A stretch of DNA of 64,000 bases from Minisyncoccota bacterium (GCA_035438505.1 DAORIM010000001.1:7808-71807), one strand, 5' to 3'; counted from the first letter of the stretch, positions 21,049-40,593 are shown. Numbers and translations: made by a program. The notes: generated by a model from the letters alone, not told the origin.

Positions 21049-21125
21049 CCACCCTTAGCTCAGTTGGTTAGAGCACGGAGCTTATACCTCCGCGGTCCTT
21101 GGTTCGAGTCCAAGAGGGTGGACCA
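21049..21125 (+). tRNA. tRNA with anticodon TAT (tRNA-Ile, UAU), CCA encoded
   Basis: Cloverleaf: acceptor ccaccct/agggtgg, D-arm gctc-agttggtta-gagc, anticodon stem cggag/ctccg with loop cTTATAc, T-arm cttgg-ttcgagt-ccaag, discriminator A + CCA. Confidence 0.6.
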
Positions 21126-23191: not shown

Positions 23192-23638
23192 ATGAGCACG
23201 CTCATAGAAAACAAGAAGGCCCGACTTCGCTTTGAGACGCTTGAAACCTATCAAGCGGGCATTGAGCTATTTGGGTACGAGGTGAAGTCAGTCCGGAGCA
23301 AGCTCGGGAGTCTTGAGGGCGCCCGGGTGCTCGTGCGCGGGGGCGAAGCCTTCCTTGTAGGTATGACGGTGCCCGCGTATCAGCTTGCGAACGCGCCTGC
23401 GGACTACGATCCTGAGCGTCCACGCAGACTCCTCCTTTCTCGCAAGGAAATCGCGGAATTGCTTGATGCTGAATCAAAGAAGGGCTTGACAGTTGTGCCT
23501 TTTGAGGTGTATACTAGTGGGAGATACGTGAAGGCGCGCATCAATATTGTGCGCGGTAAAGGCAAAGCTGACAGACGCGAGGATCTCAAACGTCTGGAAG
23601 CAAAGAAGGATGCCGATCGCGCCATGCGCCAGAAGTAG
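23192..23638 (+). CDS. smpB: SsrA-binding protein
   Basis: IENKKARLRFETLETYQAGIELFGYEVKSVR... canonical SmpB; basic C-terminal tail; start set at Met11 of the ORF. Confidence 0.85.
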   Translation: MSTLIENKKARLRFETLETYQAGIELFGYEVKSVRSKLGSLEGARVLVRGGEAFLVGMTVPAYQLANAPADYDPERPRRLLLSRKEIAELLDAESKKGLTVVPFEVYTSGRYVKARINIVRGKGKADRREDLKRLEAKKDADRAMRQK

Positions 23639-23684
23639 TCGATCGTTCGCGTTCTGGAACCACTCTCCTGATTGGTTCCAGAAC

Positions 23685-24094
23685 GGGGGTGACCGGCTTT
23701 GACGGTCCTGTACCTTGAGAGACGTGCGACGCGGTGGAAGTGTGCTGACCACCTAAAAACGTACACACAAATACTTGCAAAGAACACTCTTGCAAGCGTG
23801 AAGTCCCCATACTTCGGTACTAAGGACTTTGCGTTCGCTTACGCGTAAAAGCTTTGCGCTTTCGCCTAAGCGACGTTCATATATTCCCGTTTCTTCAGGG
23901 GGATGTATGGGCGGAATCTTCTGAAGAATCGGTATCAAAGCTCTCCTAGGCTTTGGCTTAAAAGACAGGATTAGGCAGGAGCGTTTTCGCTGACGTTCCT
24001 ATTCTCCTGCTGAAACTTCAACGTTAGCTACGCGTCGTAGACTCGCTCTGAAGACGGGATTCGGACCGGAGTTCGACTCTCCGCACCTCCACCT
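23685..24094 (+). ncRNA. ssrA: transfer-messenger RNA (tmRNA, ssrA)
   Basis: 5' end gggggtgaccggctttgacgg pairs with 3' end cacctccacc giving a tRNA-Ala-like acceptor stem with G3:U70; 3' T-arm ccggagttcgactctccg; internal Ala-rich tag-like frame ...gac ttt gcg ttc gct tac gcg taa; directly downstream of smpB. Confidence 0.65.
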
Positions 24095-25753
24095 CATTTC
24101 ATCGGAAGGCACGAAAGTGCCTTTTCGTGTTTTATCTGTTGGCTTTTTCGAGGTTCTAACTTTTTCTAGAGTTGCAGAGAGGTCCCTTCCTTCGGTTAGA
24201 ACTTGAATTGGCTTCTCTAGCTGTAAAGTCAGTATTCCCTGCTCTAAAACATGTTCCGTACCAAGAGCTGCAATTATTGACCTTCGCTTTTGTAAGCCGC
24301 CCTCAAGAAACTCCTCTCTTGCTCTCTCAGCGAAGGTTAGAAGTCGTTCTGCATCATCAATCCAGGTCTTGAACCTCACCTCAGTAGCTTCAATGCGGTT
24401 TTTAAGCGCTCTTTCATCATCTTCAAGGCGACTGCGCTCAGTTTTATATTCATCTGAACCAATGTCTCCAACTAGTCTCATTTCGAAAAGTCTTTGGAGT
24501 CTTTCAGCCACATCCTTTCGTCTCAGTTCATGAGCATAAAGTATGGAGTCCTTGTCAGTAGCCTCCTTTTCATATTCCTTCTTGAGTTCCGCAATTGCCC
24601 ATGCGTGGAATGCAGGGGCAATTTTTATCGATGATAGAAAGTCTATAAATAGTTCCTCAAGCTTCTTCTCTTCAATTGCCTTCTGCTTGCATGTACGGAT
24701 TTTTCCAGTGCATCGGTAATACGAGTACTCATGGATATTGCCATTCTGTTGCCGTTTTATCTTCTTCTCACACGTGATTCGTGCACCACATCCTCCGCAA
24801 CGCATGAGTCCGACATAAGTGTGCATGTGCTTCTGTGGTTTGGCTGATTTGCGATCAATTATCTGCTGAACCTCATCAAACTGCTCCTTGGTTATCATTG
24901 GGGTGTGCAGACCTTTGTACCATTGGGCTATTTCTGGGTACTTTGCGGGGTATAAGTACCATCCATAGTAGAAAGGATTCCTTAATATGTTGTAGAAGCC
25001 GTGGAGTGAAATGGGCCTCGAAGAAGGGTTTCTTCTGGTCTTCTTGGCCTTTAGCCCCCACTCATTAACAGCAAGGTCATATACCTGATGAGGGGTGTAC
25101 TGACGCGAGAGTATTGCATCGAAGATCTTGCTAACGATTGTGAAGTTTGGCTCGTCAACCTCGCACTGTTCCGGACGGTCATCACGGTATTTTGTGTTTC
25201 TGTATCCTATTGGAGCAAGACACGGCCTGAAGCCTCTAAGTGCTGCTCCTCCTTGACCACGCTTAATATTTTCCCTTAGCTTTCGTATGTACTCGGTTGC
25301 CATTGCTGTTTCAATGGTTCCCATTAGCGAATTCTCTTCAGCAGAGTATTCCCGACTTGGTGTCTTAATGAGCTTTATCGCTCCAGCAATACGCAAGTCT
25401 CCGATTTTCCCTCCTTCCTCGAGATTTCTTGCAAGACGATCATAGTCCCAGCATAAAATTGCATTGGCTTTTCCAGCCTTGATGAACTCGACCATCTCCG
25501 TGAATACGGTGCGTTTGCCTGAAGTAGCAGCCGATTTCTCTTCCGAGAATTCCTTCACTACGTTATAGCCTAAATCGAAGGCTATCTTTCTCATCACACG
25601 GAGCTGGTCTTGTGTCGATTCTACAAACTCATCCTTATCTCTAGCTTCAATCGAGCGACGAGCATAGATAACGAACTTAAAGCTCGCTCTTTCATCCTCC
25701 CTCTTTAGTTTTTGGTTGTATCCAACGTCCGACATATTCTTTTTTGAAAGCAA
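23999..25753 (-). CDS. large serine recombinase (site-specific integrase)
   Basis: N-terminal resolvase catalytic domain (FVIYARRSIEARDKDEF...TQDQ), recombinase domain, Cys4 zinc ribbon (CGGCGARITC...YYRC) and coiled coil; C-terminal ~30 codons run antisense through the tmRNA 3' end. Confidence 0.8.
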   Translation of the reverse strand: MLSKKNMSDVGYNQKLKREDERASFKFVIYARRSIEARDKDEFVESTQDQLRVMRKIAFDLGYNVVKEFSEEKSAATSGKRTVFTEMVEFIKAGKANAILCWDYDRLARNLEEGGKIGDLRIAGAIKLIKTPSREYSAEENSLMGTIETAMATEYIRKLRENIKRGQGGAALRGFRPCLAPIGYRNTKYRDDRPEQCEVDEPNFTIVSKIFDAILSRQYTPHQVYDLAVNEWGLKAKKTRRNPSSRPISLHGFYNILRNPFYYGWYLYPAKYPEIAQWYKGLHTPMITKEQFDEVQQIIDRKSAKPQKHMHTYVGLMRCGGCGARITCEKKIKRQQNGNIHEYSYYRCTGKIRTCKQKAIEEKKLEELFIDFLSSIKIAPAFHAWAIAELKKEYEKEATDKDSILYAHELRRKDVAERLQRLFEMRLVGDIGSDEYKTERSRLEDDERALKNRIEATEVRFKTWIDDAERLLTFAERAREEFLEGGLQKRRSIIAALGTEHVLEQGILTLQLEKPIQVLTEGRDLSATLEKVRTSKKPTDKTRKGTFVPSDEMRWRCGESNSGPNPVFRASLRRVANVEVSAGE

Positions 25754-25895
25754 GCAGTTCGTTTGCGTCCATCTGTTCGAGAGGTGTTGTGCAGATCATG
25801 ATGAGAATCTGCACCACCTCCTCTCGTGACATGGACTCAATTTGCTTAATCATGTCTCCAACTACATAGTCTCTTAGTTCTTCGAGACTATTCAT
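25692..25895 (-). CDS. hypothetical small protein
   Basis: 67-aa ORF just upstream of the integrase; no family. Confidence 0.25.
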   Translation of the reverse strand: MNSLEELRDYVVGDMIKQIESMSREEVVQILIMICTTPLEQMDANELLAFKKEYVGRWIQPKTKEGG

Positions 25896-26156
25896 ACCTA
25901 GCAGTAGTCATGTTGTACCTTGTGGAATCGCACGACGAGCTTGCCTCCCCTATCCTTCACGAATGTCCTCTTCCTTTTCGGGAATCCAGACTCCATGAGC
26001 AGACGTTCGACAAATAGCTTCTGTGCGTTTCGTGTTAAGTGATTAGATTCTTTTGGTAAGCGTTTCATATGGAGTTTTTGGTACTCTTGACAAGTCCTGA
26101 TATTTCTATCGTATTAGGCTCGTCTCAAAAGTACATATAGTTCCATATGAATGTGT

Positions 26157-26339
26157 TCACATCTTTTCGAGGTCATACCTTAGCTCTTCAAGACGCTCCT
26201 TGGGGTCCCCATAAATGGCTTTGTAGAGGTTCAGTATGAGCAAAGCCTTGCGGTGGAGTTCCTCATCCGTTAGCTCTTCCCCAAATTCTTGGAGATAGAT
26301 TTGGTGGAAGTCGTTGAGACTGTTAGCGTCCAGTGCCAT
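26157..26339 (-). CDS. hypothetical small protein
   Basis: 60-aa acidic ORF, stop overlaps the primase-helicase start (translational coupling). Confidence 0.3.
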   Translation of the reverse strand: MALDANSLNDFHQIYLQEFGEELTDEELHRKALLILNLYKAIYGDPKERLEELRYDLEKM

Positions 26340-28279
26340 TAGAAGATTGGCTCAGTGTCCTCCTGCACGAAGTTCACCTCTTCAAGGTGGTACTTGTTCT
26401 TCTTCCCCTCCTTGTAGACTGAGAGCGAACCTTCCTCGACCATGCTTCGCAGAGCCTCTCCGATGTTGCGGCTACCCACACCAGTCTCCTCACGGACGGC
26501 CTGGATGATTTCCTCATTCGTATAGTCCTGAATTTGGAGCATGGCGGTGATTGCATCGCGAGCCTCTTCCTTCTTAGTAGTTCGCTCATCGATACTCTCG
26601 TAGCGAAGCTCTACCGGACTTCCGATAACATCTGGGTCTTGAGCAAGTACTACACGAAACTTATTCGTGTTCCGTCCACGTCTCGACTTAACGTGTTCAA
26701 CTTCCAGATTCTGTTCGGACGTCGTGCAGTCCTTCTTCTCCACGGTAATGTGTGAATCGAGACGCCCAGAGTATGCTGACGATCCGCGAAGGCTCTGTGC
26801 TCCTCCACTAGAAGCACCCATGCCGCTTTTACGATGGTGGTGAATGAACAACACAGTTGCTCCTGCTTTCGTGAATCTTTGCATGGCCTCAAGTACCTTT
26901 TGCGCTCCCTCGGCAGAGTTCTCATCTTGGGAGTGCATGGCTGCGAATGGGTCAATGATAACCAAAGCAATATTCTGCTCCTTCACAGTCTGGAGCAGAG
27001 CCTCCATGTCTTCCTTCTTGTCTACCTTGAAGCCGTTAAGGCTGTAGAAGTAAATGGGCAGGTCTTCCGAATAGCCCATCACCTCCATGCGGCGGCGTAG
27101 CTCCCACGCTCCCTGTTCTTCGTCCACGATGAGGACACTGCCTTGCTTCGTCACGAAGTTATCGAGGAAGCTTTCTCCAGCAGCCACACACTTGGCCAAG
27201 TGGAGGAGAATCCAACTCTTGCCGCAACCTGGATGGCCGCTCAGCGCAGTAATGCCTTTCTCCGGTATGAGTCCGTACACGAGAAACTCAGGACGTTCTG
27301 ACTCCGGCATGTTGAGAATGGAAGAGACTGACAGAAGCTGTCGTGTTGGAGTCGTATCAGACACTTCCTTATCAACATAGGTAGTCCCCTCACCTCCCTG
27401 GGCATGTTGCTTCTGGGCGATACCGCGAAAGATAGACTTCACCTCACTGTCTGGAAGAGGTGGATCGTTCGCTTTATCGTTCCAAGCAAGTACCGTAGGA
27501 AGTACGAAAGTGTCCCAGTCTTTGGACGGCAAGTGGTGCAGGAGCTTGCCGACATACTTCACGGTAGAGTCGTGCCTGTTCCCCTCCTTCGCTCCTCCAA
27601 CGATAGCCTCCCAATCTGTAGCCTCCTCATACTTGGCTTGTCGCCTCTCTTCGATGTCTGCAAGCCACTTCGGCATTTGCGGCAGGTCTTCCGTGATATC
27701 GAGAGGCTTAATCCATTCGTACGCTTTGCCCGTCTTCGGATGAATTGAAGGAGGGACAACCACATAACCTCCATCAGCCTTCATGTCTCCATGAATGCCG
27801 TATGCTCCGAGCGGACCAGATTTAATCTCGTCCACGAGGTATGGATAGTCGTAGAAGTAGTGCCAGCCTCCTCCGCCCGTCCTGCTAATCGCAGTTGGTG
27901 GCAGTTCGTACTTAGACGGGTCTTCATCCGATTCGAGGTCAAGCACGGCAAGGCCATGAACATATCCCGTAATCATCCCCAAGCCAGTTATTCTGTCTCC
28001 GTAGGTCTTAAACCACTGACGCATCTCATCCGGCGTGGGTGCCTTACCCTGCTGAAAGTCCTTCCATGATGGAATGACTGGGACCTTGCCATTGAGCGGG
28101 ATGACCGTTCTGCAGTCATCTAGGTATGCGAGTGCTGCTTCTAGCAATGTTTCAGAATGGGAGGTCATCTTCTGTCTTGTTATCGGCACCCTCATCCTGC
28201 TTCTCGATGATGCGCTGGATAAGATCTGATACCACTTGAGAGTTTTCCTCTCCCCAGAGAGCAGGTACCAGCACCACAC
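26339..28279 (-). CDS. bifunctional primase-polymerase (Prim-Pol) / RecA-like (RepA/AAA_25) replicative helicase
   Basis: N-terminal Prim-Pol motifs (LDLESDED acidic triad region, GGGWHYFY); central P-loop ATPase SGHPGCGKSWILLHLA with VLIVDEEQG Walker B; C-terminal winged-helix-like tail. Confidence 0.7.
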   Translation of the reverse strand: MWCWYLLSGERKTLKWYQILSSASSRSRMRVPITRQKMTSHSETLLEAALAYLDDCRTVIPLNGKVPVIPSWKDFQQGKAPTPDEMRQWFKTYGDRITGLGMITGYVHGLAVLDLESDEDPSKYELPPTAISRTGGGGWHYFYDYPYLVDEIKSGPLGAYGIHGDMKADGGYVVVPPSIHPKTGKAYEWIKPLDITEDLPQMPKWLADIEERRQAKYEEATDWEAIVGGAKEGNRHDSTVKYVGKLLHHLPSKDWDTFVLPTVLAWNDKANDPPLPDSEVKSIFRGIAQKQHAQGGEGTTYVDKEVSDTTPTRQLLSVSSILNMPESERPEFLVYGLIPEKGITALSGHPGCGKSWILLHLAKCVAAGESFLDNFVTKQGSVLIVDEEQGAWELRRRMEVMGYSEDLPIYFYSLNGFKVDKKEDMEALLQTVKEQNIALVIIDPFAAMHSQDENSAEGAQKVLEAMQRFTKAGATVLFIHHHRKSGMGASSGGAQSLRGSSAYSGRLDSHITVEKKDCTTSEQNLEVEHVKSRRGRNTNKFRVVLAQDPDVIGSPVELRYESIDERTTKKEEARDAITAMLQIQDYTNEEIIQAVREETGVGSRNIGEALRSMVEEGSLSVYKEGKKNKYHLEEVNFVQEDTEPIF

Positions 28280-28373
28280 GGACCTTGCCGTCCGGCATTA
28301 TTACGTGGGCTACTGTCACATCGTCGTTCGCGTCGAGGAAGGCCTGGACTCTGTCTGGAAACTGAATTTTCAT
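28152..28373 (-). CDS. hypothetical small protein
   Basis: 73-aa ORF overlapping the 5' end of the primase gene; weak. Confidence 0.25.
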   Translation of the reverse strand: MKIQFPDRVQAFLDANDDVTVAHVIMPDGKVRVVLVPALWGEENSQVVSDLIQRIIEKQDEGADNKTEDDLPF

Positions 28374-28531
28374 AAGACGTTATCTTTACGGAGCAGGAGC
28401 TAATTCGTCCTGAATCCTGCATTAATCGTCTCGTTAAAATGAATCGAGGTACAAAATGAAAAACCAGATTTGGAAATGAAAAATGGCTCAGTTGAGCCAT
28501 TAATTTGCTTCAGTAATTCTTGCTGTTTTCA

Positions 28532-29323
28532 TTATTTCCTATAAGGCGCTTCGTCGGTCGTAGGGTTGTAGAATCTGTATCCCTTACCAGGAACGAGCAT
28601 AAATAATTCAGTCCCTTCGATCTTTCTGGGGAGCTGGAGTTTTGTTGCATTTCGAATGAGAGATTTCGCAACCGCATCACGAATCCTCTGTTGTCCCTCC
28701 TCTCCAGGCTTCGGATTCTGCCCCATCCTTACTATGGATGCCTCTATAGCTTCGTATGGCACATAGTCCTTATGGTGTGGAGCCAGCTCATAAAGACTCC
28801 GAAAGACGGCGTAATACAGAGACTTCCTGCTTTTGAATTTGATTTCCTTTATCTTGCCAGTGGTCCCGTATTCAAATGCCCCATCTTCTCTCATTCGAAT
28901 ATACCTGTATGGAGCATATTCATCCTTCTGGCTGAACATCGTACCTGGGACTTTGGACTCGTTCTCTACGCGAACGACTGGCCGTATATCGCGGACTCGC
29001 ACGTAAAAATAATTTGGATATAGAACTACATCATCCTCATCCATGCCTGTTGGCACAAATCCATTCTTACCCTCATCCTCATTTTGGAGGTACGTAATTG
29101 CATGCTGGGATTCGAGCCAACTCAGGTAAGCAAGCCTGTTCGATTCCATGTCTTGCTCTTCTGGCTCATTGATTTCGTGAGTCCTCACAGGCAAAGGGTC
29201 GTGAGTGCCAATTTCATGCTCAGGCATATGCTGTCTGCACGAATTCCAGTACCGAACCATTTCGGCATTGTATCTACGTATATGCTCCGTGTACCTGAAT
29301 GGAATATCCATGCAATTGTGCAA
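28532..29323 (-). CDS. hypothetical protein (island)
   Basis: 263 aa, no recognisable family; intact ORF with moderate GC. Confidence 0.4.
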   Translation of the reverse strand: MHNCMDIPFRYTEHIRRYNAEMVRYWNSCRQHMPEHEIGTHDPLPVRTHEINEPEEQDMESNRLAYLSWLESQHAITYLQNEDEGKNGFVPTGMDEDDVVLYPNYFYVRVRDIRPVVRVENESKVPGTMFSQKDEYAPYRYIRMREDGAFEYGTTGKIKEIKFKSRKSLYYAVFRSLYELAPHHKDYVPYEAIEASIVRMGQNPKPGEEGQQRIRDAVAKSLIRNATKLQLPRKIEGTELFMLVPGKGYRFYNPTTDEAPYRK

Positions 29324-29454
29324 GTACTATATAGATTGCCACTTTGCACAGGAAAAAGCACCCGTGAGGGGTGCCTGTTCCGTTGAGCCATATGAAACCA
29401 TTACCGTACCCTTAAACGTCCCACGTAGAGGCACGTGGAACCTCACAAGAGGTC

Positions 29455-29916
29455 TTATGCCTCCTCTGCTGGTGGTGCTTTGGTCTTTAAGGTTCCTCCC
29501 ATGAGTTCCTTGAACTCGACTTGGCATTTCGACATGGCTGGATTGAGGGTCATCATGACCGTAAACGGTGATGTCTGACCAGCCATTATCGGGTTGTACT
29601 CTGTGAGAGCTTCCGAAGAGTTCACGAACTGTCCGTCTTCCGTGAAGGTGGTACCCACTGCCGTGACGTTCTCGATGGACTTATCACTGATGTTCTTTAC
29701 CTGGCCAGTGATATGGAAATAGCCATACTCCTTGTAGCAACGGTAGCTGATGAGTTCGAGCTTGTCTGCTCCAGTAGGTGCCGAAGCACTAGGAGTGGAT
29801 GTGGAATCGCCCATGCTTCCGAGGAAGCCAAGGACAATAAGAATGGCTACTGTAATAAGAAGTATTTTCCCTATCCGATGTTTCTTCTTCGGCTCGGGAT
29901 TAGCGGTGTCAGTCAT
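29455..29916 (-). CDS. hypothetical membrane-anchored protein
   Basis: N-terminal TM helix (ILLITVAILIVLGFLG), Ser/Thr linker, beta-rich C-terminal domain. Confidence 0.4.
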   Translation of the reverse strand: MTDTANPEPKKKHRIGKILLITVAILIVLGFLGSMGDSTSTPSASAPTGADKLELISYRCYKEYGYFHITGQVKNISDKSIENVTAVGTTFTEDGQFVNSSEALTEYNPIMAGQTSPFTVMMTLNPAMSKCQVEFKELMGGTLKTKAPPAEEA

Positions 29917-30029
29917 AATTTAAGAGGCTAAGGATTATATGGATTATTTAGCCGTCTTAGGGCTATGTGGAAAAATATATAACAATATTGAAAATTTGGA
30001 TATTGGCTTCTTGGATACACGCTTTGTGT

Positions 30030-30251
30030 ATGAAGAAGTCCACCCACACTAAAGAATATGCCGTGTTTGTGGAACGACTTAAGAATGCTCGTTTGGAGGC
30101 AGGACTGACTCAAGTACAGGTAGCGAAAAGGATTGGTCGCCCTCAATCCCATATTTCAAATATCGAAAGTGGCCAGCAGAGAGTGGATGTAATTGAACTT
30201 AAGCGATTCGCTAAGTTGTATAGAAAGGCGATGGATTACTTCTTGAAGTAG
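30030..30251 (+). CDS. XRE-family helix-turn-helix transcriptional regulator
   Basis: Cro/C1-type HTH LTQVQVAKRIGRPQSHISNIESGQQRVDVIEL; start set at internal Met (MKKSTH...). Confidence 0.65.
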   Translation: MKKSTHTKEYAVFVERLKNARLEAGLTQVQVAKRIGRPQSHISNIESGQQRVDVIELKRFAKLYRKAMDYFLK

Positions 30252-30253
30252 AA

Positions 30254-30724
30254 CTAACTTTTGATAAATTCCACCAAAAGTGATCGGTACTTGTCTTGTA
30301 ATTCTCTACTTATAAGTGAGTCTGGAATTTCTGTTAATGAGGCTTCTTCGTTGAGTAGGTCGCTACATCTATCAAAATAAAAGGCTTCTGGCGTAGCTAT
30401 AAACATATATGCGAGCTTCCATCGCTCACATATTGCTGCTGCCGTTCTCCTAATCTCATCGCTATCTAGACGAGAACGATACTTTACCTCTACCAGGAAG
30501 ACCTCTTTCGGGTCATGGGATACGAGAGCAAAGTCTGGAGCGTTTCGAATATTATCCAGTAGCTCACGATCATTTATTTGCCTGGTGTATTGCTGGAGTT
30601 CAGATACGACAGACTCATACCCAAAAGGAATGACTGTGTACTTCTCAGCATCGCGAAACATCTGCTCAAAAACCAATTCCGCAATCTTCCCTTTAATTAA
30701 CTGTTTCGAGAAGTCCTTCTGCAT
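30254..30724 (-). CDS. hypothetical protein, possible PD-(D/E)xK nuclease fold
   Basis: Motif arrangement D...DFALVSHDPKEVFLVEVKYR resembles the D-(x)n-E-x-K restriction-endonuclease-like core; downstream partner of the giant helicase operon. Confidence 0.35.
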   Translation of the reverse strand: MQKDFSKQLIKGKIAELVFEQMFRDAEKYTVIPFGYESVVSELQQYTRQINDRELLDNIRNAPDFALVSHDPKEVFLVEVKYRSRLDSDEIRRTAAAICERWKLAYMFIATPEAFYFDRCSDLLNEEASLTEIPDSLISRELQDKYRSLLVEFIKS

Positions 30725-30726
30725 AC

Positions 30727-31611
30727 CTACTTACTCTTGAAGTTATTGATGGCATAGGACAGGATGGCACCAATAATGTCTTGATTCCCTGGTTGTGTGT
30801 ACTTAACCATTTTCTGCTTAGCTTTGTTGATTTCCGAGAAATAAACTCCGTTGCTCAAGACTTGAACATCAAGGAGCTTATTGAGCTTTATGGAGAACGT
30901 CTTTCCGTCTCCCCTAAAGACAACTCTCTTATTCGTTATCACCAATTCACCAGTACCAACGGGTACGAGTCCAGTCTCGCTAACAAGGTGTCCCCTAGAA
31001 CCTCCTACCCTATAGCTAACTCCCTTTGCGATTCTAAGACTCACTCCCTGCGATCCTCCTTCGTAACGGCGCTTGATGACTTTCTCCTCAATAAGCTGCG
31101 CTGGCTCTGCCCAATAAACCTTTTCGTCCTTTTCAGTTATCAGGTTAGGCACGAAAACTTCGGGAATATTTCCCAATTGAATCTCGTTCAATAGACGAAG
31201 TCGAGCTAGCTCCTTCTTATTTTGTGCAATCTCAACATCAGATATTCCCAGATGCTTCTGGATTCGAATCAGCTCTTCTTCCTCTTCCTTCGTAATCTGC
31301 CCGTCTGACTTCGCACTCACAAGTGCGGTCTGGTATGCACCAATCTTTGCGCGCTTTGTTTCTTCGTCAGTTAAGCCCAAATCACTTTGCCTTTTCTTAA
31401 GCTCTTCGACTTCCTTATCATCCAGTACCCCATCGGCAGCCGCCTCAACAAGAGACATTTCAAATTCCTTTTTATTCAAAGACCGCTGCTTTGATTCTTT
31501 ATATTTATCTGCAATCACTTGAAATATTTTCATGGTTTTAATGTTAAGTGTTTCTAGTCCCACGGCAATACGGGAATCGAGAGCATCCATAGAACTTGCC
31601 GAGACGGCCAC
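30727..31611 (-). CDS. hypothetical protein with N-terminal acidic helical repeats and C-terminal beta domain
   Basis: Repeats KEVEELKKRQSDLGLTDEE / KEEEEELIRIQKHLGISDVE; C-terminal GVSYRVGGSRGHLVSETGLVPVGTGELVITNKRVVF... possibly bPH-like; alternative start at 31533 would remove the overlap with the upstream gene. Confidence 0.4.
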   Translation of the reverse strand: MAVSASSMDALDSRIAVGLETLNIKTMKIFQVIADKYKESKQRSLNKKEFEMSLVEAAADGVLDDKEVEELKKRQSDLGLTDEETKRAKIGAYQTALVSAKSDGQITKEEEEELIRIQKHLGISDVEIAQNKKELARLRLLNEIQLGNIPEVFVPNLITEKDEKVYWAEPAQLIEEKVIKRRYEGGSQGVSLRIAKGVSYRVGGSRGHLVSETGLVPVGTGELVITNKRVVFRGDGKTFSIKLNKLLDVQVLSNGVYFSEINKAKQKMVKYTQPGNQDIIGAILSYAINNFKSK

Positions 31612-34600
31612 TTCTTAGAATCATTCTGGAACTGCAGCGAGGACAAACCTTATCGCTTAAAACAGGCTCAGGCTTGTTAGCTCTCTCAATAATTCTTTTA
31701 CCCTTACATTGCCTACAGAACCTCCCATAGCCAGTGATAAGGGAAGAATCTCTGAAATCCTGGTCCTCTCTCACCTCCTTACACTTCGGACAGACTTTCA
31801 TCTTTCCGTTCTGCAATCCCTGAACAGTTTCGTGAATAGTATGCAGGAGAGGATTCATTCCCGACTCCTCTTTGACTAACCTGCCAAGTCGTTGATTCAG
31901 AGTCTCAATCGGGTTCTCGCCTACATTAAAGCGATTGATGCGGAGGAATTTGTATCCATAGCTCTCAAGAACTTTCTGACGATATACATCTTCGTCCGAA
32001 TAATAATTCTGATAGTTAAACTCATTGATGACATCAACATCCTTGAAATGCTCCTTGAAGCCGTCATATTCGATAACGATCTTATGTTCTCTCCCCTGTT
32101 CGCTTTGGTACGACACCAAGAAATCAACTTTATATGCTGGATGAGAATACGTTGGGTCCAATTGCTTCAAGTACTTCCCAATTTCAAATTGAGGCACGAA
32201 TTCAATTCGTTCTTTGTTGTCATTCCAGAAACTCGTTTGGTAGAACCAGTTTAAGACTTCGGCTTCCTTACCTGACTTCTGGTCTGTTTCTTCAATACCC
32301 TTCTCCTTCTTAGCCTCTTCAAGAAGGTTAAAGTAATGCCTTAGAGCATCTCCTATGGAGCCATTGAATTTATCAAGAGGCTTACTAAGTACAAAGTGTA
32401 CGCATTCTTTTCCACGACTAAAGCCCACATTCAATCGCTGAGCTTTAATCTGACCGTCCTCTTCCACATCAACATTATTGAGGTCTTTTATGAAAATGCC
32501 CCAGAGTCTATCACTATGCTCCGAAGCTACCATTGGGTAGTAGATAATGTCCCTTTCCTCACCCTGACAGGTATCAAAAGTCATTATCTTCAAATCCAGC
32601 TTCTCGAAGTAGAAATCACGTTCTGGAAGCTTATTTATCATCTCGACCAATAGTTTTTGCTGGTTGGTATGTGGGGTAATGATTCCAACGCTCATTTCTT
32701 GCCCCTCTTCCTTCATCCGTTCCAATTCGGAAATGATGAACTCTACTTCTGCCTTGTTGGAGTTTGGGTAGACTTCGTCCTCTGGGGCGGCCTCTATGTA
32801 GGAAAACTTGATTACGTCGTCAATATTCTTGCCGCGTATCTTCATTACCTGGAGACTCTCTTGATAGAAGTACTTGTTCGAGTACGAGATTATTTCCTTG
32901 TAGCCACGGAAGTGTTTCCGGAGCTGGGTCCTGTAATTGCTTATGAACTCTACAAACTCAAGAATAGATGTCTTGATATTGAACTTTTCTAGCTTAACGA
33001 GCTTTGTACCCTCCGTTGAAACGTTCTCCTTAAATGAACGCTCAAGCATATTAAGGTACTCACGATTCGTATCTGAGCGAGCTTGAGCTGCCTTGATGTT
33101 GCTGAACTGCTTCTTATCTCCAAGGATAAGTACCTTCTTTGCTCGAAGAAGTGCCGGAAATGCCTGAGCAATGCTTACCTGCGAGGCCTCATCTATGATG
33201 ACCAGGTCAAACATTTCCTCTTCAAGAGGAATATATTCTGCATAGTCTCTGATACCAGCGAGGATACACGGGAAGGCCTTCTGAAGTTTGCGGAACTGCT
33301 CTTTAGGAAACTTCTGCTTATTCTTAATAACAGCCCTTAATGCCTCAGCATCGGTTCGATTGTGCTCATAGAAATCAATAAGCCTTCCATCCAGAAGATA
33401 TGCAACCTGCGTGATTACCAATTCTTCAATATTCTTCTTCCTCAATGCGTAGTTAAGGTCAGGGATCTCTGAGAATTCTTTTGTGAGCTTCTGCCTGAGG
33501 CTTAAATATCTCAATTGCTTATCAAACAAGAATTCGTCAGAAGAAATAATCAGGTTGCTAAAGAGGCTGGAGAATTCAGCAAAATCCAGACCTGCTTTCT
33601 CAGCTGTTCTCGTGTACTTCTGGGTGAAATCTCTCAGATAAGTAGTCTCCTCTCCGGCTTTTACAAACTCTTTAAGATATTCAGTTCCGCCTTCTTCTTT
33701 CAAAAGGCGGTGAACTATTCCCACGTAATCTAATCCCGTGGAAAGTTTTGTGTTCACTTCCTCTCCAAGGGAATGTATGTAATCGAAAATGGCATATGCG
33801 TCTTTCAGTCTCTGAATTTCCTGATGAGCCATTGCTACCGGGGTGCGGAATGCTTGCCTGAAACGTAGGTCTACTTCTCCAACTTTCTTTTTCTCGAACA
33901 AAAAGCCTACGAGAAAAGCCTTAAGGCTCTCATACTCTTTAATGAAGTCAGCCAACTTCTCTATTTCTTTCTTTGAGAAGGAATCAAAAATGGCTATTGA
34001 ATCAAGTTTCTCTTTGTATATATCCTTTAGCTTCTCGATACTCTCAGAGGCGAGAGAGAGGAAGCGAATCACATTCTCATAATCCTCAACTGTACCGATA
34101 TCTTTGGAATTGACTCCAATTATTTCGAACAGCTCCTTCCCTACTTCCGAGTCGTAAGCTCCCTTAAGGAGGTTGAGCGAAGACCGTGCTTCACTAATTT
34201 CAATAGGAGCCTCTTCAAATGGAAGGGCTTCGTTAATATCAAAGGTAAGTTCTTCTGTATTTATAGAACTCTCTAGGGCGACGAGTTCTTTTACTTCTTG
34301 AATATCAATGTCTTCACAGGCCACTACTTCAGCCTCCAGGTCTTCTCTCAGTGAATTTATAGACTTCTCGATATTCCCCACGATCACCTCATGATTCTTT
34401 CTTACCGCGTGATGGTGGGTCTTAATATCCTGGTAAGTACCTTGAGCAAGAATCTTAGCGTAAGTGTTTCCTGTCTTACCGAGTCGAAGAATTGGGTTCT
34501 GGAAGTTTTCAGCATTCCTGACCTTATTAATCGTCTGGGTAATATTATTTTCAACGACATCCAGAGCTTCTTTCTTATCAGACAAAACGAGTACGGATTG

Positions 34601-36106
34601 CTCTCGAAGAACGGCATCGAAGATAATGGCCGTAATAGTGTGGCTCTTACCAGTACCAGGAGGTCCCTCAATGACTAGATACCGGCATGAGTCTTTCCTT
34701 ATTGCAGAGAGAATTTGAAGCTGTTCTGCATTAAGTGGGATAGGGCTTGAAACTACAAGCCTCTCGGTTATGTCAGTATCATCCCATTCTTTCTCTACCT
34801 CTGGATTACAGGGTTCAGGGTTGTTATAGAGGAAGTCTCCAAGCAGCTTGTTGAAAGATTCGGATAGCAATCCCCCCTCCTCGCCAAGCTGTTTAAGAAT
34901 GTCCTCGTAGTCATTTACAAGAGCCTCATCAGACTTATCGAAGAGCGCTATATAGCAGGAGTTGGTAATCCGTACAGTTGGCCCTTTCGCCACCTGGGCT
35001 TTTTCCTCAACAAATGAGACATTACCCTTCGCTTCAAAGAAGTTGATTATCTCCGTTAATATGACGGAAAGAACTTCTTGAAGGTCAGTCGTGTGCTGAG
35101 CCAGATAAATGATTCGCTCTGTAATTGTTTGAAGGTTCCCCTTTTTCCCACTAAGAACATTGTTCTCCTGGACTATATATTCCAGAGCCTTCTTGTTTAT
35201 GTATATTTGTGAATCAAACTCTAGCGAAAGCACCTCATCCTGTCTCGTTATACTTATCGGCACGTAAAATATTGGGTACTTTGCGTTACCAAAAGCAATA
35301 TCGCCAAAATAAAGGTAGAAGTCCTGCTTTTCTAAAATGCTCCTATTGCGAGACATCTCAAATATCTCCGCAAACAAATCGGCAACCTGTAGACTCTCAA
35401 AAAAGGAATTGAGTGTGCTCTTAACTTCTGAGAGTGCGAAAACGCTCTTTAGTTCTTTCTCAAGATTTACTTTCTCCTTTGCAATAAAAAGATTAAGGGT
35501 CTCAGAAACCCTGCTCTCCACTAGACGCAAGAGCACCTCGGAAAGCTCCTCTTCAACCAGAAAAATATTCCCTTCATCCCCCAATGTGAGGTTCTGTAGT
35601 GGCTTATCAAGCTTTTCAATAAACGGGTCTACCAATTCGACACGGATTGTTGCTCGTGCTGAATCAATTGCCGTATTTAAGGCAATATCGTATTCCGTTT
35701 CGTAAAGTGTACCGAGCCTCTCAATATCCTCCGCGATATTCTTTATTATTTTGTTTATCTGAGCAGCACTTATTTTTTCGACCTGAAGCTTGACCAAGTC
35801 GAGTAAATTCTTAGGTAGCTTTGTTTGATAAACACCCTTCTCTATCTTACTGAGTACATCTCTATCAAAATTCTTATTAACTAAAGACCAGACTAGCTTA
35901 TTGAAAGTTTCGTACTTTTGAAGATTCAAACCGACAAGTAAGTTGTCATTGTTCCTAAATTTAATAGCCCTACGCGGCAATTTCTTCTTGTGAAAATCGG
36001 ACTCCAAGAAGTCCATGAAGTACTTTGCTACATCCTTAAAGAAAAGGAGTCCGTTCTCGGCCGATGGAGTAGGAGTTGTTTGCATGTCTTGAGTTAATAG
36101 TACCAA
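31544..36106 (-). CDS. giant SF1 (Upf1/DNA2-like) helicase with N-terminal DUF4011-like region, C-terminal restriction-endonuclease-like (DUF559/Vsr-like) domain and topoisomerase-type C4 zinc ribbons
   Basis: 1520 aa; Walker A GPPGTGKSHT, LIIDEASQV (AAA_11), TFDTCQGEERDIIYY (AAA_12); C-terminal HKIVIEYDGFKEHF nuclease-like core; CPKCKEV...CRQCKG and CPRCSSRMILRSGRLGKFYGCSRFPYCRGT zinc ribbons; AT-rich codon usage. Confidence 0.75.
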   Translation of the reverse strand: MVLLTQDMQTTPTPSAENGLLFFKDVAKYFMDFLESDFHKKKLPRRAIKFRNNDNLLVGLNLQKYETFNKLVWSLVNKNFDRDVLSKIEKGVYQTKLPKNLLDLVKLQVEKISAAQINKIIKNIAEDIERLGTLYETEYDIALNTAIDSARATIRVELVDPFIEKLDKPLQNLTLGDEGNIFLVEEELSEVLLRLVESRVSETLNLFIAKEKVNLEKELKSVFALSEVKSTLNSFFESLQVADLFAEIFEMSRNRSILEKQDFYLYFGDIAFGNAKYPIFYVPISITRQDEVLSLEFDSQIYINKKALEYIVQENNVLSGKKGNLQTITERIIYLAQHTTDLQEVLSVILTEIINFFEAKGNVSFVEEKAQVAKGPTVRITNSCYIALFDKSDEALVNDYEDILKQLGEEGGLLSESFNKLLGDFLYNNPEPCNPEVEKEWDDTDITERLVVSSPIPLNAEQLQILSAIRKDSCRYLVIEGPPGTGKSHTITAIIFDAVLREQSVLVLSDKKEALDVVENNITQTINKVRNAENFQNPILRLGKTGNTYAKILAQGTYQDIKTHHHAVRKNHEVIVGNIEKSINSLREDLEAEVVACEDIDIQEVKELVALESSINTEELTFDINEALPFEEAPIEISEARSSLNLLKGAYDSEVGKELFEIIGVNSKDIGTVEDYENVIRFLSLASESIEKLKDIYKEKLDSIAIFDSFSKKEIEKLADFIKEYESLKAFLVGFLFEKKKVGEVDLRFRQAFRTPVAMAHQEIQRLKDAYAIFDYIHSLGEEVNTKLSTGLDYVGIVHRLLKEEGGTEYLKEFVKAGEETTYLRDFTQKYTRTAEKAGLDFAEFSSLFSNLIISSDEFLFDKQLRYLSLRQKLTKEFSEIPDLNYALRKKNIEELVITQVAYLLDGRLIDFYEHNRTDAEALRAVIKNKQKFPKEQFRKLQKAFPCILAGIRDYAEYIPLEEEMFDLVIIDEASQVSIAQAFPALLRAKKVLILGDKKQFSNIKAAQARSDTNREYLNMLERSFKENVSTEGTKLVKLEKFNIKTSILEFVEFISNYRTQLRKHFRGYKEIISYSNKYFYQESLQVMKIRGKNIDDVIKFSYIEAAPEDEVYPNSNKAEVEFIISELERMKEEGQEMSVGIITPHTNQQKLLVEMINKLPERDFYFEKLDLKIMTFDTCQGEERDIIYYPMVASEHSDRLWGIFIKDLNNVDVEEDGQIKAQRLNVGFSRGKECVHFVLSKPLDKFNGSIGDALRHYFNLLEEAKKEKGIEETDQKSGKEAEVLNWFYQTSFWNDNKERIEFVPQFEIGKYLKQLDPTYSHPAYKVDFLVSYQSEQGREHKIVIEYDGFKEHFKDVDVINEFNYQNYYSDEDVYRQKVLESYGYKFLRINRFNVGENPIETLNQRLGRLVKEESGMNPLLHTIHETVQGLQNGKMKVCPKCKEVREDQDFRDSSLITGYGRFCRQCKGKRIIERANKPEPVLSDKVCPRCSSRMILRSGRLGKFYGCSRFPYCRGTRNT

Positions 36107-36222
36107 GTTTCTTCATAATTTAACTGGGTTCTTAACATACCACTTATCCAAAAAGGCCTTATTTAAAGGCTCTCTTTAGATTTCTTTGAGGTTTTCTTTA
36201 GAAAATATCCAGATTTTCTATA

Positions 36223-36741
36223 TCAATTCTCTGGCTTCCAGGTACCTAAAACAATGTAGTAGAAGAGGCGACGTCCGAATTCAAAAAGAAGAGCTACTGC
36301 AATTAAGTAAGCGACACTATAGAGCAACACTTCAATCCAACTACCCCTTGTTAGGGCAATATCTTCAATCTCTACTGAGGGCAGAGTGTCATTGTTATAT
36401 TTCGCGTCCAGTATTTCTCTTGGTGAACTTCTTACCTCTTCCTCCCCGCACGCTATCCGTAGTGTATATCGCTGAGCATTGCTAAGGGATTCAAGGCCAA
36501 GACTCGAGCTGTACCCTGAGAGATCGATTCGCTTATCTCTAGAGGCTTGGAAAGTAGAATGGTTCCCTCCTGTGCAAATAATCCTATGGTCCACGACGAG
36601 AGAGTCAGGCTCATTCTCGTCATAGATAGCTATGAGCATTACCAGAGTCATGATTCCAAAAAGACCGATATAACCGACTTTCAAAAGTCGATACCACCAC
36701 TTTGAATTCAGGTCTGCTAATGAATGAGGCTGTTTGTTCAT
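36223..36741 (-). CDS. hypothetical membrane protein
   Basis: Two TM helices (N- and C-terminal) flanking a soluble domain; 172 aa. Confidence 0.35.
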   Translation of the reverse strand: MNKQPHSLADLNSKWWYRLLKVGYIGLFGIMTLVMLIAIYDENEPDSLVVDHRIICTGGNHSTFQASRDKRIDLSGYSSSLGLESLSNAQRYTLRIACGEEEVRSSPREILDAKYNNDTLPSVEIEDIALTRGSWIEVLLYSVAYLIAVALLFEFGRRLFYYIVLGTWKPEN

Positions 36742-36879
36742 ATCCTTGATAACTAGGATACCAAATTTCTACTTGTTAAAGCTTGTAAACGTTTATAAAC
36801 GAAAGAGGTTCAAACCAGAGAGGTGGTTTTGACGTCGTTATGATTGAATCATTGGCTTTTACGCTTTGACACCCCCTAC

Positions 36880-37020
36880 CAGCTATCCACCAAATGTAAA
36901 AAATGTGAGGCTCTGCTTTCCAGTAATGAGGTTCTAACCTCGTGAAGCCACCTCCACCGACATAGAACTATATGGCGACATATAGAAGCATAGGAGAACC
37001 GCCTCATGGGCGGTTTTCTG
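36880..37020. repeat. island repeat unit A (GAGGTTCTAACC core + downstream hairpin)
   Basis: atccaccaaatgtaaaaaatgtgagg...gaggttctaacctcgtgaagccacctccaccgacatagaactatatggcgacatatagaa then hairpin gaaccgcctcatgggcggttttc; near-identical 3' half at 37705-37770, homologous 5' half at 41176-41235. Confidence 0.7.
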
Positions 37021-37046
37021 ATTGTCTAACTACGCACATATCATTC

Positions 37047-37607
37047 CTACTCAAAGCGATGGAATGTGAACCATTTCATGGTACCTACCGGAATTCCATA
37101 CACCTCTTCAATCACAGTTCTGGGACTTCGGAGCTCAACCGAATTCCAATCCAGCCCGAGTGAGTTTGCTGTTGTCTTTAGCGCATCTTCGCTGGGACCC
37201 TCCAATTCGACATATGTTGGTATCTTCGGCCATGTATCGATATCCACCACCACGTCACCCATATGAAACGTGTACCGCTTCTTCTCCTGATGTCGGTACG
37301 CAACATAGCCAAGGCGTTCTAAGAGTGCCTCAGCGGCATCAGCGTTATCTACCTCGAACTCAATCTCTTCCGTACCTTCAGCGGTTATTTCTGTCCGGTG
37401 CTTATAGGTGAGCTTCGTTTTCCCATCACACGTACGCAGTCGGAGAATTTTATGCGCACCGTCGCGCCAGGTCATCGCATTGTCATAAATTATGCGTTCT
37501 TGAAGGAGGTATTCTCCCTTGTCCTCAGCGCCTAACTCCTCGAGTTTCTTGATAAGTTCCTCCTTATCGATCTCGAGAAACCTGACCTCGATTTCTCTGT
37601 AATTCAT
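37047..37607 (-). CDS. CYTH-domain protein (CyaB/thiamine-triphosphatase-like)
   Basis: N-terminal YREIEVRF (ExExK) motif and further acidic residues typical of CYTH triphosphate tunnel enzymes; 186 aa. Confidence 0.7.
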   Translation of the reverse strand: MNYREIEVRFLEIDKEELIKKLEELGAEDKGEYLLQERIIYDNAMTWRDGAHKILRLRTCDGKTKLTYKHRTEITAEGTEEIEFEVDNADAAEALLERLGYVAYRHQEKKRYTFHMGDVVVDIDTWPKIPTYVELEGPSEDALKTTANSLGLDWNSVELRSPRTVIEEVYGIPVGTMKWFTFHRFE

Positions 37608-37649
37608 GTCGTTAGTATAACCCTGGCTGATGGTGGCCCGAAACTATCT

Positions 37650-37795
37650 CCTACCACCCATCCACGATCCGTAAGAAGTTAGGCGAGCTGTCCTGAATCA
37701 GACAGGTTCTAACCTCGTGAAGCCACTTCCACCGACATAGAACTATATGGCGATATATAGAACAGTAGAAACCGCCTTTGAGGCGGTTTCTACCT
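37650..37795. repeat. island repeat unit B
   Basis: ...caggttctaacctcgtgaagccacttccaccgacatagaactatatggcgatatatagaa then hairpin gaaaccgcctttgaggcggtttc. Confidence 0.7.
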
Positions 37796-37816
37796 ATCTC
37801 TCGTATTGCATTAGCT

Positions 37817-38113
37817 CTACAGGTACGCCGTTTCTTCAATAAACGCCACGACAAGGCCCGGTGACGGAGAGTTCGGCTCTATAATCACTTTCTTCCCCTT
37901 TAGGGCTGCTGATAAATCATCCACTTCAAACGCAACATGCGGTGTCGTGAGGACCAGGGCGGGATACGTAGCATCAGGGTCAAACCGCATCCATTGAAGT
38001 CGGTATGGATTCGCTTCATGATCTGTAACTGTCATCTTGAGGTGAGCAAGATACATTTCATCTTTTTGTATTTCTTTCGTGGGGATCCCTGTGTGGTTGT
38101 ACTTCACCATCAA
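37817..38113 (-). CDS. VOC (glyoxalase/bleomycin-resistance) family protein
   Basis: Single beta-alpha-beta-beta-beta module, PHVAFEVDDL motif; 98 aa. Confidence 0.4.
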   Translation of the reverse strand: MMVKYNHTGIPTKEIQKDEMYLAHLKMTVTDHEANPYRLQWMRFDPDATYPALVLTTPHVAFEVDDLSAALKGKKVIIEPNSPSPGLVVAFIEETAYL

Positions 38114-38218
38114 AGTATACCAATTGCTTACGAATACCGGTTAACGCATCAAACCGCCGGAATTGGCGGTTTGATGCAACTGACAGTCCAGGGTGCCATC
38201 CCTACACGTAGCTGTTTG

Positions 38219-38881: not shown

Positions 38882-38882
38882 G

Positions 38883-39434: not shown

Positions 39435-39469
39435 AGTTGATACTTATCTAATAAGCAAACTAAGGAATG

Positions 39470-40318: not shown

Positions 40319-40319
40319 A

Positions 40320-40586
40320 CTAAGCGCGCTTTAGTGAGTAAACCTTCAAGATCTCCTTCGTTGCCTTACCTTCCTGTCCCTTTTTCATCTGCCCGATGAC
40401 GCAGGTACCAAGATGGCTTTCCAGGAGCTGGTCTTCTACGCCTGACAGCGCACGCTTCACGGCCGAAGTCTGCGTGATGATATCAACGCAGTAAATATCC
40501 TCTTCAATCATTTTCTTTAAACCTCGTACTTGTCCCTCTATGCGATTTAGTCGGTTTAATACCTGCTTCTTTGCTTCTGTCTTCAT
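40320..40586 (-). CDS. csoR: CsoR/RcnR-family metal-sensing transcriptional repressor
   Basis: 88 aa; LNRLNRIEGQVRGL helix, conserved Cys (YCVD) and His (ESHL, GTC) ligand positions typical of copper-sensing CsoR. Confidence 0.8.
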   Translation of the reverse strand: MKTEAKKQVLNRLNRIEGQVRGLKKMIEEDIYCVDIITQTSAVKRALSGVEDQLLESHLGTCVIGQMKKGQEGKATKEILKVYSLKRA

Positions 40587-40593
40587 GCACTCA

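Follow-up and report, generated by a model that had tools for sequence, protein, structure and literature searches.

Islander-type islands, reportedly described by Williams in 2002, are carried into transfer RNA (tRNA) and transfer-messenger RNA (tmRNA) genes by tyrosine integrases. The integrases of the myxophage Mx8 (intP/intX) and of the fusellovirus SSV1, which are likewise tyrosine recombinases, are said to be encoded by genes that contain their own attachment site (attP), and the protein made in the prophage state reportedly differs from that of the free form. The locus described here combines features of these systems with a large serine recombinase (LSR). It lies in a 64,000-nucleotide (nt) stretch of DNA from a Minisyncoccota bacterium (GCA_035438505.1 DAORIM010000001.1:7808-71807), which is called the window below and is numbered from its first letter. 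In the window the tmRNA gene is followed by an element of low GC content, E1, whose LSR gene converges on it (Table 1). The reading proposed here, with a probability of about 0.8, is that E1 was inserted by its own LSR at the last bases of the tmRNA gene, that the T-loop of the RNA gene is recognized in this reaction, that the integrase gene spans attP, and that a tandem array of elements has formed at the site.

E1 is similar to islands of the Islander type in being inserted at the 3' end of an RNA gene that is preserved, in having its integrase gene next to the RNA gene, and in the accumulation of elements in tandem. It differs from them in that, from 24 to 44 kb, neither the open reading frames (ORFs) nor the called genes contain a tyrosine integrase domain, and in that the block of identity in the E1 family is limited to 5-10 bp at the extreme 3' end, whereas islands of the Islander type carry a longer copy of the 3' part of the gene. 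Unlike the integrases of Mx8 and SSV1, that of E1 is of the serine type, and only its last ~27 codons are exchanged, for antisense tmRNA or tRNA sequence.

With the phage-type large serine integrases (A118/LI, phiC31, Bxb1 and SPbeta) the E1 enzyme shares the Resolvase, Recombinase and zinc-ribbon domains together with a coiled-coil insert, and the attachment sites share a short common core and an outer motif that lies 5 bp further out in attP. The similarity to integrases of solved structure is weak: the PDB match is to the C-terminal domain of the A118/LI integrase (4KIS/6DNW; residues 218-373, E=1.8e-8). Unlike these enzymes, the E1 LSR targets the 3' ends of tRNA and tmRNA genes and not protein-coding genes. 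Its family further differs in having the universally conserved T-arm as presumed bacterial half-site, an integrase gene that spans attP, an additional fixed motif ~65 bp from the crossover, and reuse of occupied sites with formation of tandem arrays.

The use of tRNA or tmRNA genes by serine integrases was found in 14 of 297 islands by Mageeney et al. (2020, PMC7192596), who describe it as 'not reported previously' and as still requiring proof; the usage given in this systematic survey is 4.9% (PMC7192596). Durrant et al. (2022) make no mention of tRNA. Among the tycheposons of Prochlorococcus, 910 of 937 have tyrosine recombinases and 27 of 937 an LSR (Hackl et al., bioRxiv 10.1101/2020.12.28.424599). 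Tycheposons resemble E1 in being cargo or defence islands beside tRNA or tmRNA genes with a site-specific recombinase and a primase/helicase module, in the peak of heterogeneity beside the RNA gene, and in the minority that use an LSR. Their hosts are cyanobacteria, whereas those of the E1 family are mainly Patescibacteria, and the passages of the preprint that were consulted describe no att architecture, T-loop mimicry or ORF-spanning attP for the LSR members. E1 has an RNA gene as neighbour, an LSR, a Prim-Pol/AAA_25 module and cargo, so that the likeness is one of organisation.

Insertion at the 3' end of the tmRNA gene

The tmRNA gene begins 46 nt downstream of smpB, the product of which is identical on five contigs. 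It was identified by ARAGORN and by a match to the full length of the Rfam model RF00023 (23685-24094, all 374 model positions, 111.4 bits with the gathering threshold at 47, E=1e-42). Its 5' sequence GGGGGUG pairs with the 3' sequence CACCUCC, which is followed by ACC, giving a tRNA-Ala-like acceptor with G3:U70. These results bear out an original prediction, made from the sequence alone, of a ~410-nt tmRNA with such an acceptor directly downstream of smpB. The reading frame of the tag that had been noted at the same time is also present, but the tag, AKNTLASVKSPYFGTKDFAFAYA*, opens with alanine and closes with FAYA without being especially rich in alanine as had been stated.

The GC content changes from 0.53-0.57 to 0.39-0.48 over the region from 24 kb to ~44 kb, which includes a richer stretch at 38-40 kb. 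Exact matches to the 3' terminus of the tmRNA, CACCTCCACC, number two in the window (24084-24093 and 36949-36958), and they are spaced 12,865 nt apart. The crossover took place within this sequence, probably at TCCAC (24088-24092). The blocks shared by cognate left and right junctions (attL and attR) are CACCTCCACC in the window, TCCAC at loci L132 and L005 (comparison loci are numbered with the letter L), TCTCCACAA at L006, and CTCCA at L032, where the target is tRNA-Ala; the crossover is therefore placed within the few bases that close the RNA gene, where the acceptor stem ends and the discriminator lies. These blocks of 5-10 bp are compatible with the canonical scheme for serine integrases, in which the crossover is staggered by 2 bp, only attP and attB recombine, and attL and attR are inert unless a directionality factor is present. 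With the crossover at this place, the RNA gene is preserved as a whole and only its 3' trailer is replaced. The predicted attP junction of excised E1 reads …GAGGTTCTAACCTCGTGAAGCCACCTCCACCTCATTTCATCGGAAGGCACG, and the predicted site free of E1 reads …GACTCTCCGCACCTCCACCGACATAGAACTATATGG.

Four comparisons with other loci, independent of one another, establish that the junction is in the CACCTCCACC block. At L085, from the same species, SmpB and tmRNA are identical to those of the window and ~98% identity extends across 11 kb of flank. The two sequences are the same through 24101, after which L085 continues into a different element, with an integrase that is 58% identical and a Phage_rep_O replication gene in place of prim-pol. 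L129, which is 77-81% identical in housekeeping genes, has neither an LSR nor E1, and its tmRNA gene is joined directly to the sequence found rightward of the junctions J1 (attR of E1) and J2 in the window. A serine-integrase island abutting the 3' end of the tmRNA gene, as had been predicted, is supported by both loci. L132, from another host, carries an intact element of 10,759 nt with an integrase that is 78% identical. The tmRNA-proximal (P') arm in its attL is nearly that of the window, and the last 83 nt of the arm in its attR are 94% identical to the opposite (P) arm at junction J3 of the window; this right arm ends in …CCAATTCCAC, with a terminator of native appearance after it. The empty site reconstructed for L132 is …CCTCCACCA, again followed by the terminator. 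Finally, L001 is a 4.4-kb contig without tmRNA or tRNA, on which the ORF of an integrase (P0032, 43% identical) runs contiguously through the hairpin, the core AGGTGG and the P arm, an arrangement that would be expected of an unintegrated attP. A metagenome scan with the 3'-terminal 26-mer of the tmRNA gave 39 loci, mostly from unrelated bacteria in which a terminator comes after a plain CCACCA; of the 39, L129, L094 and L121 alone provided information.

The hairpin that follows the tmRNA gene is GGCACGAAAGTGCC in the window and GGCTCGAAAGAGCC in L085. The two differ by a compensatory change of A:T to T:A, and the hairpin is therefore taken to be functional and owned by the element. Judging by these comparisons, the tmRNA terminator at 24108-24121 is part of the island.

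The original prediction had also singled out the inverted repeat at 24150-24202 as a possible pair of recombinase half-sites. The repeat is real, with arms that match perfectly over 8 bp, the base following the second arm being T and not C, but it sits 60-110 nt inside E1 and so has no place at the junction. Were it nevertheless the site of crossover, the segment 24094-24150 with its terminator would be host DNA. This is very improbable. The outer edges of the repeat are indeed 50 bp apart, the size of a serine-integrase attP, its motif is strongly over-represented in the window, and like pairs are present in L001, L085, L132, L016 and L017. However, strains with identical tmRNA genes part from 24102 and not from 24150, the hairpin and the motif move with the integrase to another host (L132) and to a contig lacking tmRNA (L001), and the direct repeat that bounds E1 is the tmRNA terminus. 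In addition, the second inverted arm is found at only ~8 of 55 loci, with spacings of 39-40 and 49-52; in the window it falls within the coding sequence of the last folded helix of the integrase. The scarcity of this arm also led to rejection of the pair at 24153-24202, with its attP-sized span of 50 bp, as a family-wide site for an integrase dimer. A crossover in a palindrome GAGGTT-CT-AACCTC, reconstructed as TGGCTTtttCGAGGTT-CT-AACCTCGtgAAGCCA, is ruled out by three loci: hairpin, core and P arm are contiguous in L001, L085 diverges at 24102, and L132 has the same P' arm.

A family of recombinases at tRNA and tmRNA genes

Relatives of the window LSR were sought in one genome per species. 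This gave 573 relatives, of which the 80 best-scoring loci were kept. Patescibacteria (the candidate phyla radiation) make up most of the hosts, and others belong to Elusimicrobia, Omnitrophota and Margulisiibacteriota. At 59 of the 80 loci, the end of the LSR ORF meets the 3' end of an RNA gene on the opposite strand (tRNA in 49 cases, tmRNA in 10), and the tRNA targets comprise His, Asn, Lys, Gln, Ser, Ala, Gly, Leu, Arg and Ile. At five further loci (L023, L038, L072, L077 and L083) the end of the integrase ORF adjoins a group I intron, with Rfam scores of 54-73 bits. We read these as intron-bearing tRNA genes missed by ARAGORN; if so, intron-containing tRNA genes are targets of LSRs as well. 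Several of the remaining loci have an antisense tRNA T-arm at the end of the contig.

The LSR ORF extends 6-142 nt into the RNA gene at 57 of the 59 loci, and the C-termini of the homologs are mostly antisense tRNA or tmRNA sequence, such as …MWRWGESNPRP, …WRCGESNSGP and …MWTVQDSNLRP. The reading of the ORF into the tmRNA gene is thus evidently a consequence, throughout the family, of an integrase gene that spans attP. A serine recombinase at a tmRNA gene had been called less typical in the original prediction. This agrees with the literature, in which such cases are rare and unproven, but within the present clade it is no oddity. In the literature searched, which covered few papers from subscription journals, there is no description of the clade, of T-loop mimicry in attP, or of a serine-integrase ORF that spans attP, and the group of LSRs is apparently both large and undescribed.

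Attachment sites and the T-loop offset

The genuine T-loop sequence GTTCGA starts 21-24 nt before the junction, and a look-alike in the arm of the element (GTTCTA, GTTCTG or TTCGA) lies exactly 5 nt further out. In the five cognate pairs, GTTC starts in the bacterial (B) arm and in the P arm at 23/28 (window), 22/27, 22/27, 24/29 and 21/26. The same shift of 5 nt was found in four non-cognate comparisons, in which the attP forms at L024, L041, L057 and L049 were set against relatives integrated at tRNA-Asn or tRNA-Ser genes. The P arm in attR of E1 has T-loop look-alikes at 36805-36815 and 36928-36938, followed by the core. In serine integrases, the motifs bound by the second DNA-binding domain are 5 bp nearer the centre in the bacterial attachment site (attB) than in attP (PMC11722253). 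The family of the window follows this 5-bp rule for the outer motif, on left half-sites only.

The geometry suggests how the site may be read. The bacterial left half-site would consist of the T-arm and the 3' strand of the acceptor, with GTTCGA at 24071-24076 as its presumed outer recognition motif. The zinc-ribbon domain would then read the T-loop sequence GGTTCGA, and the Recombinase domain would read the T-stem and the 3' strand of the acceptor, setting the specificity for a given tRNA. The P arm would mimic the T-loop as GGTTCTA placed 5 bp further from the crossover, which is the attP register; it is by this offset that serine integrases tell attP from attB. A mirror symmetry in the reconstructed attP (TGAA/TTCA, or CGAAA in the hairpin loop) was considered and rejected, the registers being different in the window and in L001.

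The outlying T-loop-like motif

A T-loop-like motif is also present in the P' arm, on the other side of the core. In the window GAGGTTCTAAC occurs seven times with no more than one mismatch, against 0.98 expected, and none of 100 shuffled sequences reaches seven; all seven copies are on the + strand and within the island array. A scan of the family for AGGTTC[T/G]AACC with up to two substitutions located the start of the motif +57 to +60 nt beyond the RNA gene at 52 of the 59 loci, and at +49 and +67 at two more, against a background of 0.17 per kb. The translation of the motif is [LF]E[PL], nearly always LEP or FEP, at 47 loci and VRTS at six loci and in the window. That the motif is read in different frames argues for a constraint at the level of DNA.

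It is quite unlikely that these motifs are inert debris, pieces of T-arm left over from earlier recombination and not sites of protein recognition. The motif does resemble GGTTCGAAtCC with one base removed, tandem insertion at RNA genes leaves fragments, and no fewer than three junction remnants are present in the window. Against this, the copies come without any other tRNA sequence, one of them is fixed at about +57 to +60 in 54 of 59 loci, whose targets include tmRNA and ten or more species of tRNA, and the copy in the P arm keeps the exact 5-nt offset in every pair examined.

The integrase gene and its two forms

The LSR has the Pfam domains Resolvase (PF00239, 1.5e-16), Recombinase (PF07508, 1.2e-8) and Zn_ribbon_recom (PF13408, 1.2e-8), and all residues that are invariant in the family are kept (Y24, R26, S28, R75, R100 and R103). 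With its three domains and these residues retained, the enzyme looks active. The gene is convergent to the tmRNA gene and, because its stop codon is situated within the latter, overlaps it by 95 nt (23999-24093), or ~31 codons, close to the ~30 codons of read-through given in the original prediction. The AlphaFold model is confident to about residue 517 (…PIQVLTEGR) and shows long helices between the zinc-ribbon strands at residues 374-466, which form the coiled-coil insert. The predicted local distance difference test score (pLDDT) is below 50 for residues 518-578. This tail is encoded by the P' arm of E1 and what follows it: the T-loop-like motif corresponds to V526-S529, the hairpin to K538-P543 (KGTFVP) and the core to R548-C551, and the last ~30 residues of the integrated form are antisense tmRNA.

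The core lies 30 codons before the stop of the integrated form. On the excised element the frame would continue from the core into the P arm, with 27 codons from the first base of the core, including 24 conserved codons in the P arm. The integrase gene spans attP, and the excised form alone therefore has it complete, with the ending …HFLHLVDSW*. At J2 and J3 the open frame and the stop are the same as at J1. Seven P arms (from the window, L001, L132, L005 and L006) encode [ED][VLI]RT[SC]…[HN]FL..VD.W, and in five of the seven the stop comes right after the W. Between J1 and L001, seven codons are identical, seven differ synonymously and seven non-synonymously. The synonymous changes include switches between codon families of Ser (AGC/TCG) and Arg (AGA/CGA), which points to selection on the peptide. 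Integration exchanges the last 27 codons of the integrase for antisense-tmRNA codons.

The exchange of the C-terminus may be a passive by-product, the integrase being complete at about residue 517 and the tail having no regulatory role; we regard this as possible but doubtful. It accords with the low pLDDT of the tail, with extensions of the integrated form that vary from ~2 to 47 codons according to whatever the antisense strand of the RNA gene happens to encode, and with the fact that excision requires an integrase that works from the integrated state. On the other hand, 57 of 59 ORFs are open over the whole stretch of ~35 codons in the P' arm, and …HFL..VD.W, which is encoded only when the element is excised, is conserved in the seven P arms, with the synonymous switches and the position of the stop described above. 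In the preferred reading the P' arm would have two functions, supplying the tmRNA gene with a trailer and terminator while its other strand encodes a presumably translated, disordered tail of the integrase.

The tandem array

E1 is followed by three older remnants, E2, E3 and E4; in each case a P arm with a degenerate core marks the boundary to the next. On the evidence of these junctions, the region is one intact element with at least three remnants and not one island as in the original prediction. The order E1, E2, E3, E4 is explained by newcomers inserting between the tmRNA gene and the previous occupant.

E2 retains an open frame, RWKWLHEVRTCLIQDSSPNFLRIVDGW*. It is a mini-element, hardly more than a gene for a CYTH-domain protein, and its opening 59-nt trailer, which flanks J1, recurs with 97% identity right after its right-hand core. 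E3 carries genes for DUF411, two DUF305 proteins, DUF4396 and Trns_repr_metal, with a GC content of 0.51-0.55. The part from 39860 to 41076 is conserved (~74% nt identity) downstream of the tmRNA gene in L129 and L094, and this block of metal genes looks like an old, possibly fixed island. E4 begins with a fossil P' arm, consisting of a hairpin (41268-41281), the motif at +60 (41310-41320) and integrase-tail codons up to ~41350. Searching the window with the tail of P0032 (tblastn, E=3e-10) gave a match from 41350 to 41174, running across the core; J3 thus retains both sides of an attP-like junction, including ~30 codons of the integrase tail. All four same-species contigs have the candidate defence pair of E4, PDC-M04. 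At the start of an ORF at 41747-42034 in E4 there is an inverted repeat of 22 nt, CTCTAGGTGGATAAACTGCTGA/TCAGCAGTTTATCCACCTAGAG (41992-42040), which is perfect and has a 5-nt spacer. A lone T-loop-like motif, GAGGTTCTAAT, occurs at 43420-43430 and is not followed by a recognisable core; the array ends on the right somewhere within 43434-43662.

Interpretation of the 86-nt junction repeats as displaced tmRNA fragments of the tyrosine-integrase kind was rejected: of the tmRNA they contain no more than the final 10 nt, and their T-arm-like portion is displaced and too short by 1 nt. At its gathering threshold, Rfam detects no partial tmRNA at these repeats.

State of the element

Several observations weigh against the reading of E1 as an element inserted by T-loop recognition through its own LSR. 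For canonical serine integrases attL is not a partner of attP, yet the tandem array implies three or more rounds of insertion into sites already occupied, which the classical model of serine integrases does not predict. The right half-sites (P' and B') are without a clear mirror image of the T-loop motif, which leaves the 5-bp rule one-sided. The motif at +57 to +60 sits ~65 bp away from the crossover and so beyond the limits of a canonical attP of 50 bp; for the 47 of 54 copies that are read as [LF]E[PL], conservation at the level of protein is possible. L001, a linear contig, may not come from a circle. Two scans of viral_contigs, one for the core joined to the P' arm and the other for the P arm joined to the core, gave no match to a circular junction of E1. 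No site free of E1 was found within the species, since the right-flank contigs all carry remnants: a look-up of the AHSA1 protein gave four same-species contigs with remnants on all of them, and a look-up of a 291-amino-acid right-flank protein for an empty site of the same species returned no record. The only same-species contig that reaches the right end of E1, L090, has E1.

The lack of a circular form in viral_contigs, together with the presence of E2-E4 on all four same-species contigs, is also what an integrase that has been domesticated or has died, on an island that is fixed and immobile, would produce. This is unlikely, because a different element replaces E1 in a strain that is ~98% identical over the 11 kb of flank, the catalytic and family-invariant residues are intact, and so are both arms and the reconstituted frame.

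A more far-reaching view, which we put forward only tentatively and hold to be less probable than not, is that these enzymes are a distinct functional class, in which one half-site is recognized through the T-loop, the other side is lax, and directionality or activity is set by the rewriting of the C-terminus and not solely by a coiled-coil lock. If almost any sequence were tolerated opposite the T-loop, an occupied site would stay a target and tandem arrays would result. Control of this kind may be aided by the T-loop mimics at +57 to +60 and by a 67-amino-acid partner protein, whose gene overlaps the start of the integrase gene. This ORF is 80-81% identical in the elements of L085 and L134, the integrases of which are 58-72% identical to that of the window, and its counterpart in L001 is 29% identical. 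It is a candidate partner, regulator or directionality factor.

Gene content and neighbouring features

The remaining genes of E1 include a helix-turn-helix regulator, a TnsA-like ORF and a TerB-like ORF. The largest cargo protein, of 1520 amino acids, combines an AAA_11/AAA_12 helicase, a REase_MTES_1575-like nuclease and zinc ribbons of the topoisomerase I type. It is matched in PADLOC by PDC-S37 (2.5e-43), MkoC (1e-39) and MkoA (3e-32) and is a candidate for a single-gene defence system similar to Mokosh.

Two features lie on the smpB side of the tmRNA gene. A hairpin at 23637-23698 (-37.3 kcal/mol, z = -6.3, with none of 200 shuffled sequences as stable) pairs the 3' untranslated region of smpB with ~14 nt at the 5' end of the tmRNA, and could be the terminator of smpB or a leader structure of pre-tmRNA. 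A gene for tRNA-Ile with the anticodon TAT (UAU) is situated at 21049-21125 and is also found a few kb from the tmRNA gene in the relatives L004, L005, L085 and L132. A tRNA-Ile with this anticodon is rare among bacteria.

Table 1. Positions of the tmRNA locus, of element E1 and of the older remnants in the window.
Feature	Position	Strand	Basis or remark
smpB	23192-23638	+	Pfam SmpB 1.8e-39; 148 amino acids per source metagenome calls
tmRNA	23685-24093	+	ARAGORN; Rfam RF00023
tmRNA tag reading frame	23777-23848	+	ARAGORN tag AKNTLASVKSPYFGTKDFAFAYA*
LSR, ORF of the integrated form	23999-25735	-	578 amino acids from ATG; alternative TTG start 25753
tmRNA T-arm CGGAG TTCGACT CTCCG	24067-24083	+	
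attL core CACCTCCACC	24084-24093	+	tmRNA acceptor 3' strand, discriminator, CC
Element E1, intact	24094-36958		12,865 nt; 10-bp direct repeat at ends; low GC
P' arm of E1	24094-24210	+	tmRNA trailer, terminator hairpin, motif; minus strand codes for integrase tail
Terminator hairpin GGCACGAAAGTGCC and T-run	24108-24121	+	In P' arm
T-loop-like motif GAGGTTCTAAC (consensus AGGTTCKAACC)	24150-24160	+	Inverted partner 24194-24202
Inverted repeat arms GTTCTAAC / GTTAGAAC	24153-24160 / 24195-24202		8 bp perfect; 34-nt spacer
Conserved 67-amino-acid ORF overlapping integrase start	25692-25895	-	No Pfam match
E1 replication protein, prim-pol/AAA_25	26339-28168		Pfam 3.6e-37
Mokosh-like helicase, E1 cargo, 1520 amino acids	31544-36106	-	Pfam, PADLOC
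attR of E1 (junction J1)	36805-36958	+	Repeat families D1-D3, motif scan, 5-nt outward shift
Integrase 3' end of the excised form, …RWRW LHE VRTS LLESRASHFLHLVDSW	36876-36958	-	Stop TAG 36878-36876; translation
Remnant E2	36959-37733		775 nt; trailer/terminator arm, CYTH gene, P arm 37647-37723, core CACTTCCACC 37724-37733
CYTH gene of E2	37047-37607	-	Pfam
Remnant E3	37734-41252		Metal-handling cargo; P arm 41100-41242, ending CCAATTCCAC
Remnant E4	41253-~43440		Fossil P' arm; candidate defence pair
PDC-M04B	42167-42658	-	PADLOC 3e-60
PDC-M04A/DUF3800	42670-43371	-	PADLOC 4e-96

Implications

The locus touches on the question of why tyrosine integrases favour tRNA and tmRNA genes and serine integrases apparently do not. 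The clade described here consists of serine integrases specialised on these genes, and the anatomy of their attachment sites suggests a mechanism, a copy of the T-loop held at a 5-bp offset. The choice of the tRNA target would be expected to map to the inner half-site, that is, to the acceptor and the T-stem. Integrases that read a universally conserved sequence are possible tools for integration without a landing pad, and an integrase gene altered by the very reaction that its product catalyses is a possible route to the control of directionality or copy number. For a host with a reduced genome, the end of the tmRNA gene would be a growing island of defence and metal resistance, built up by repeated insertions.

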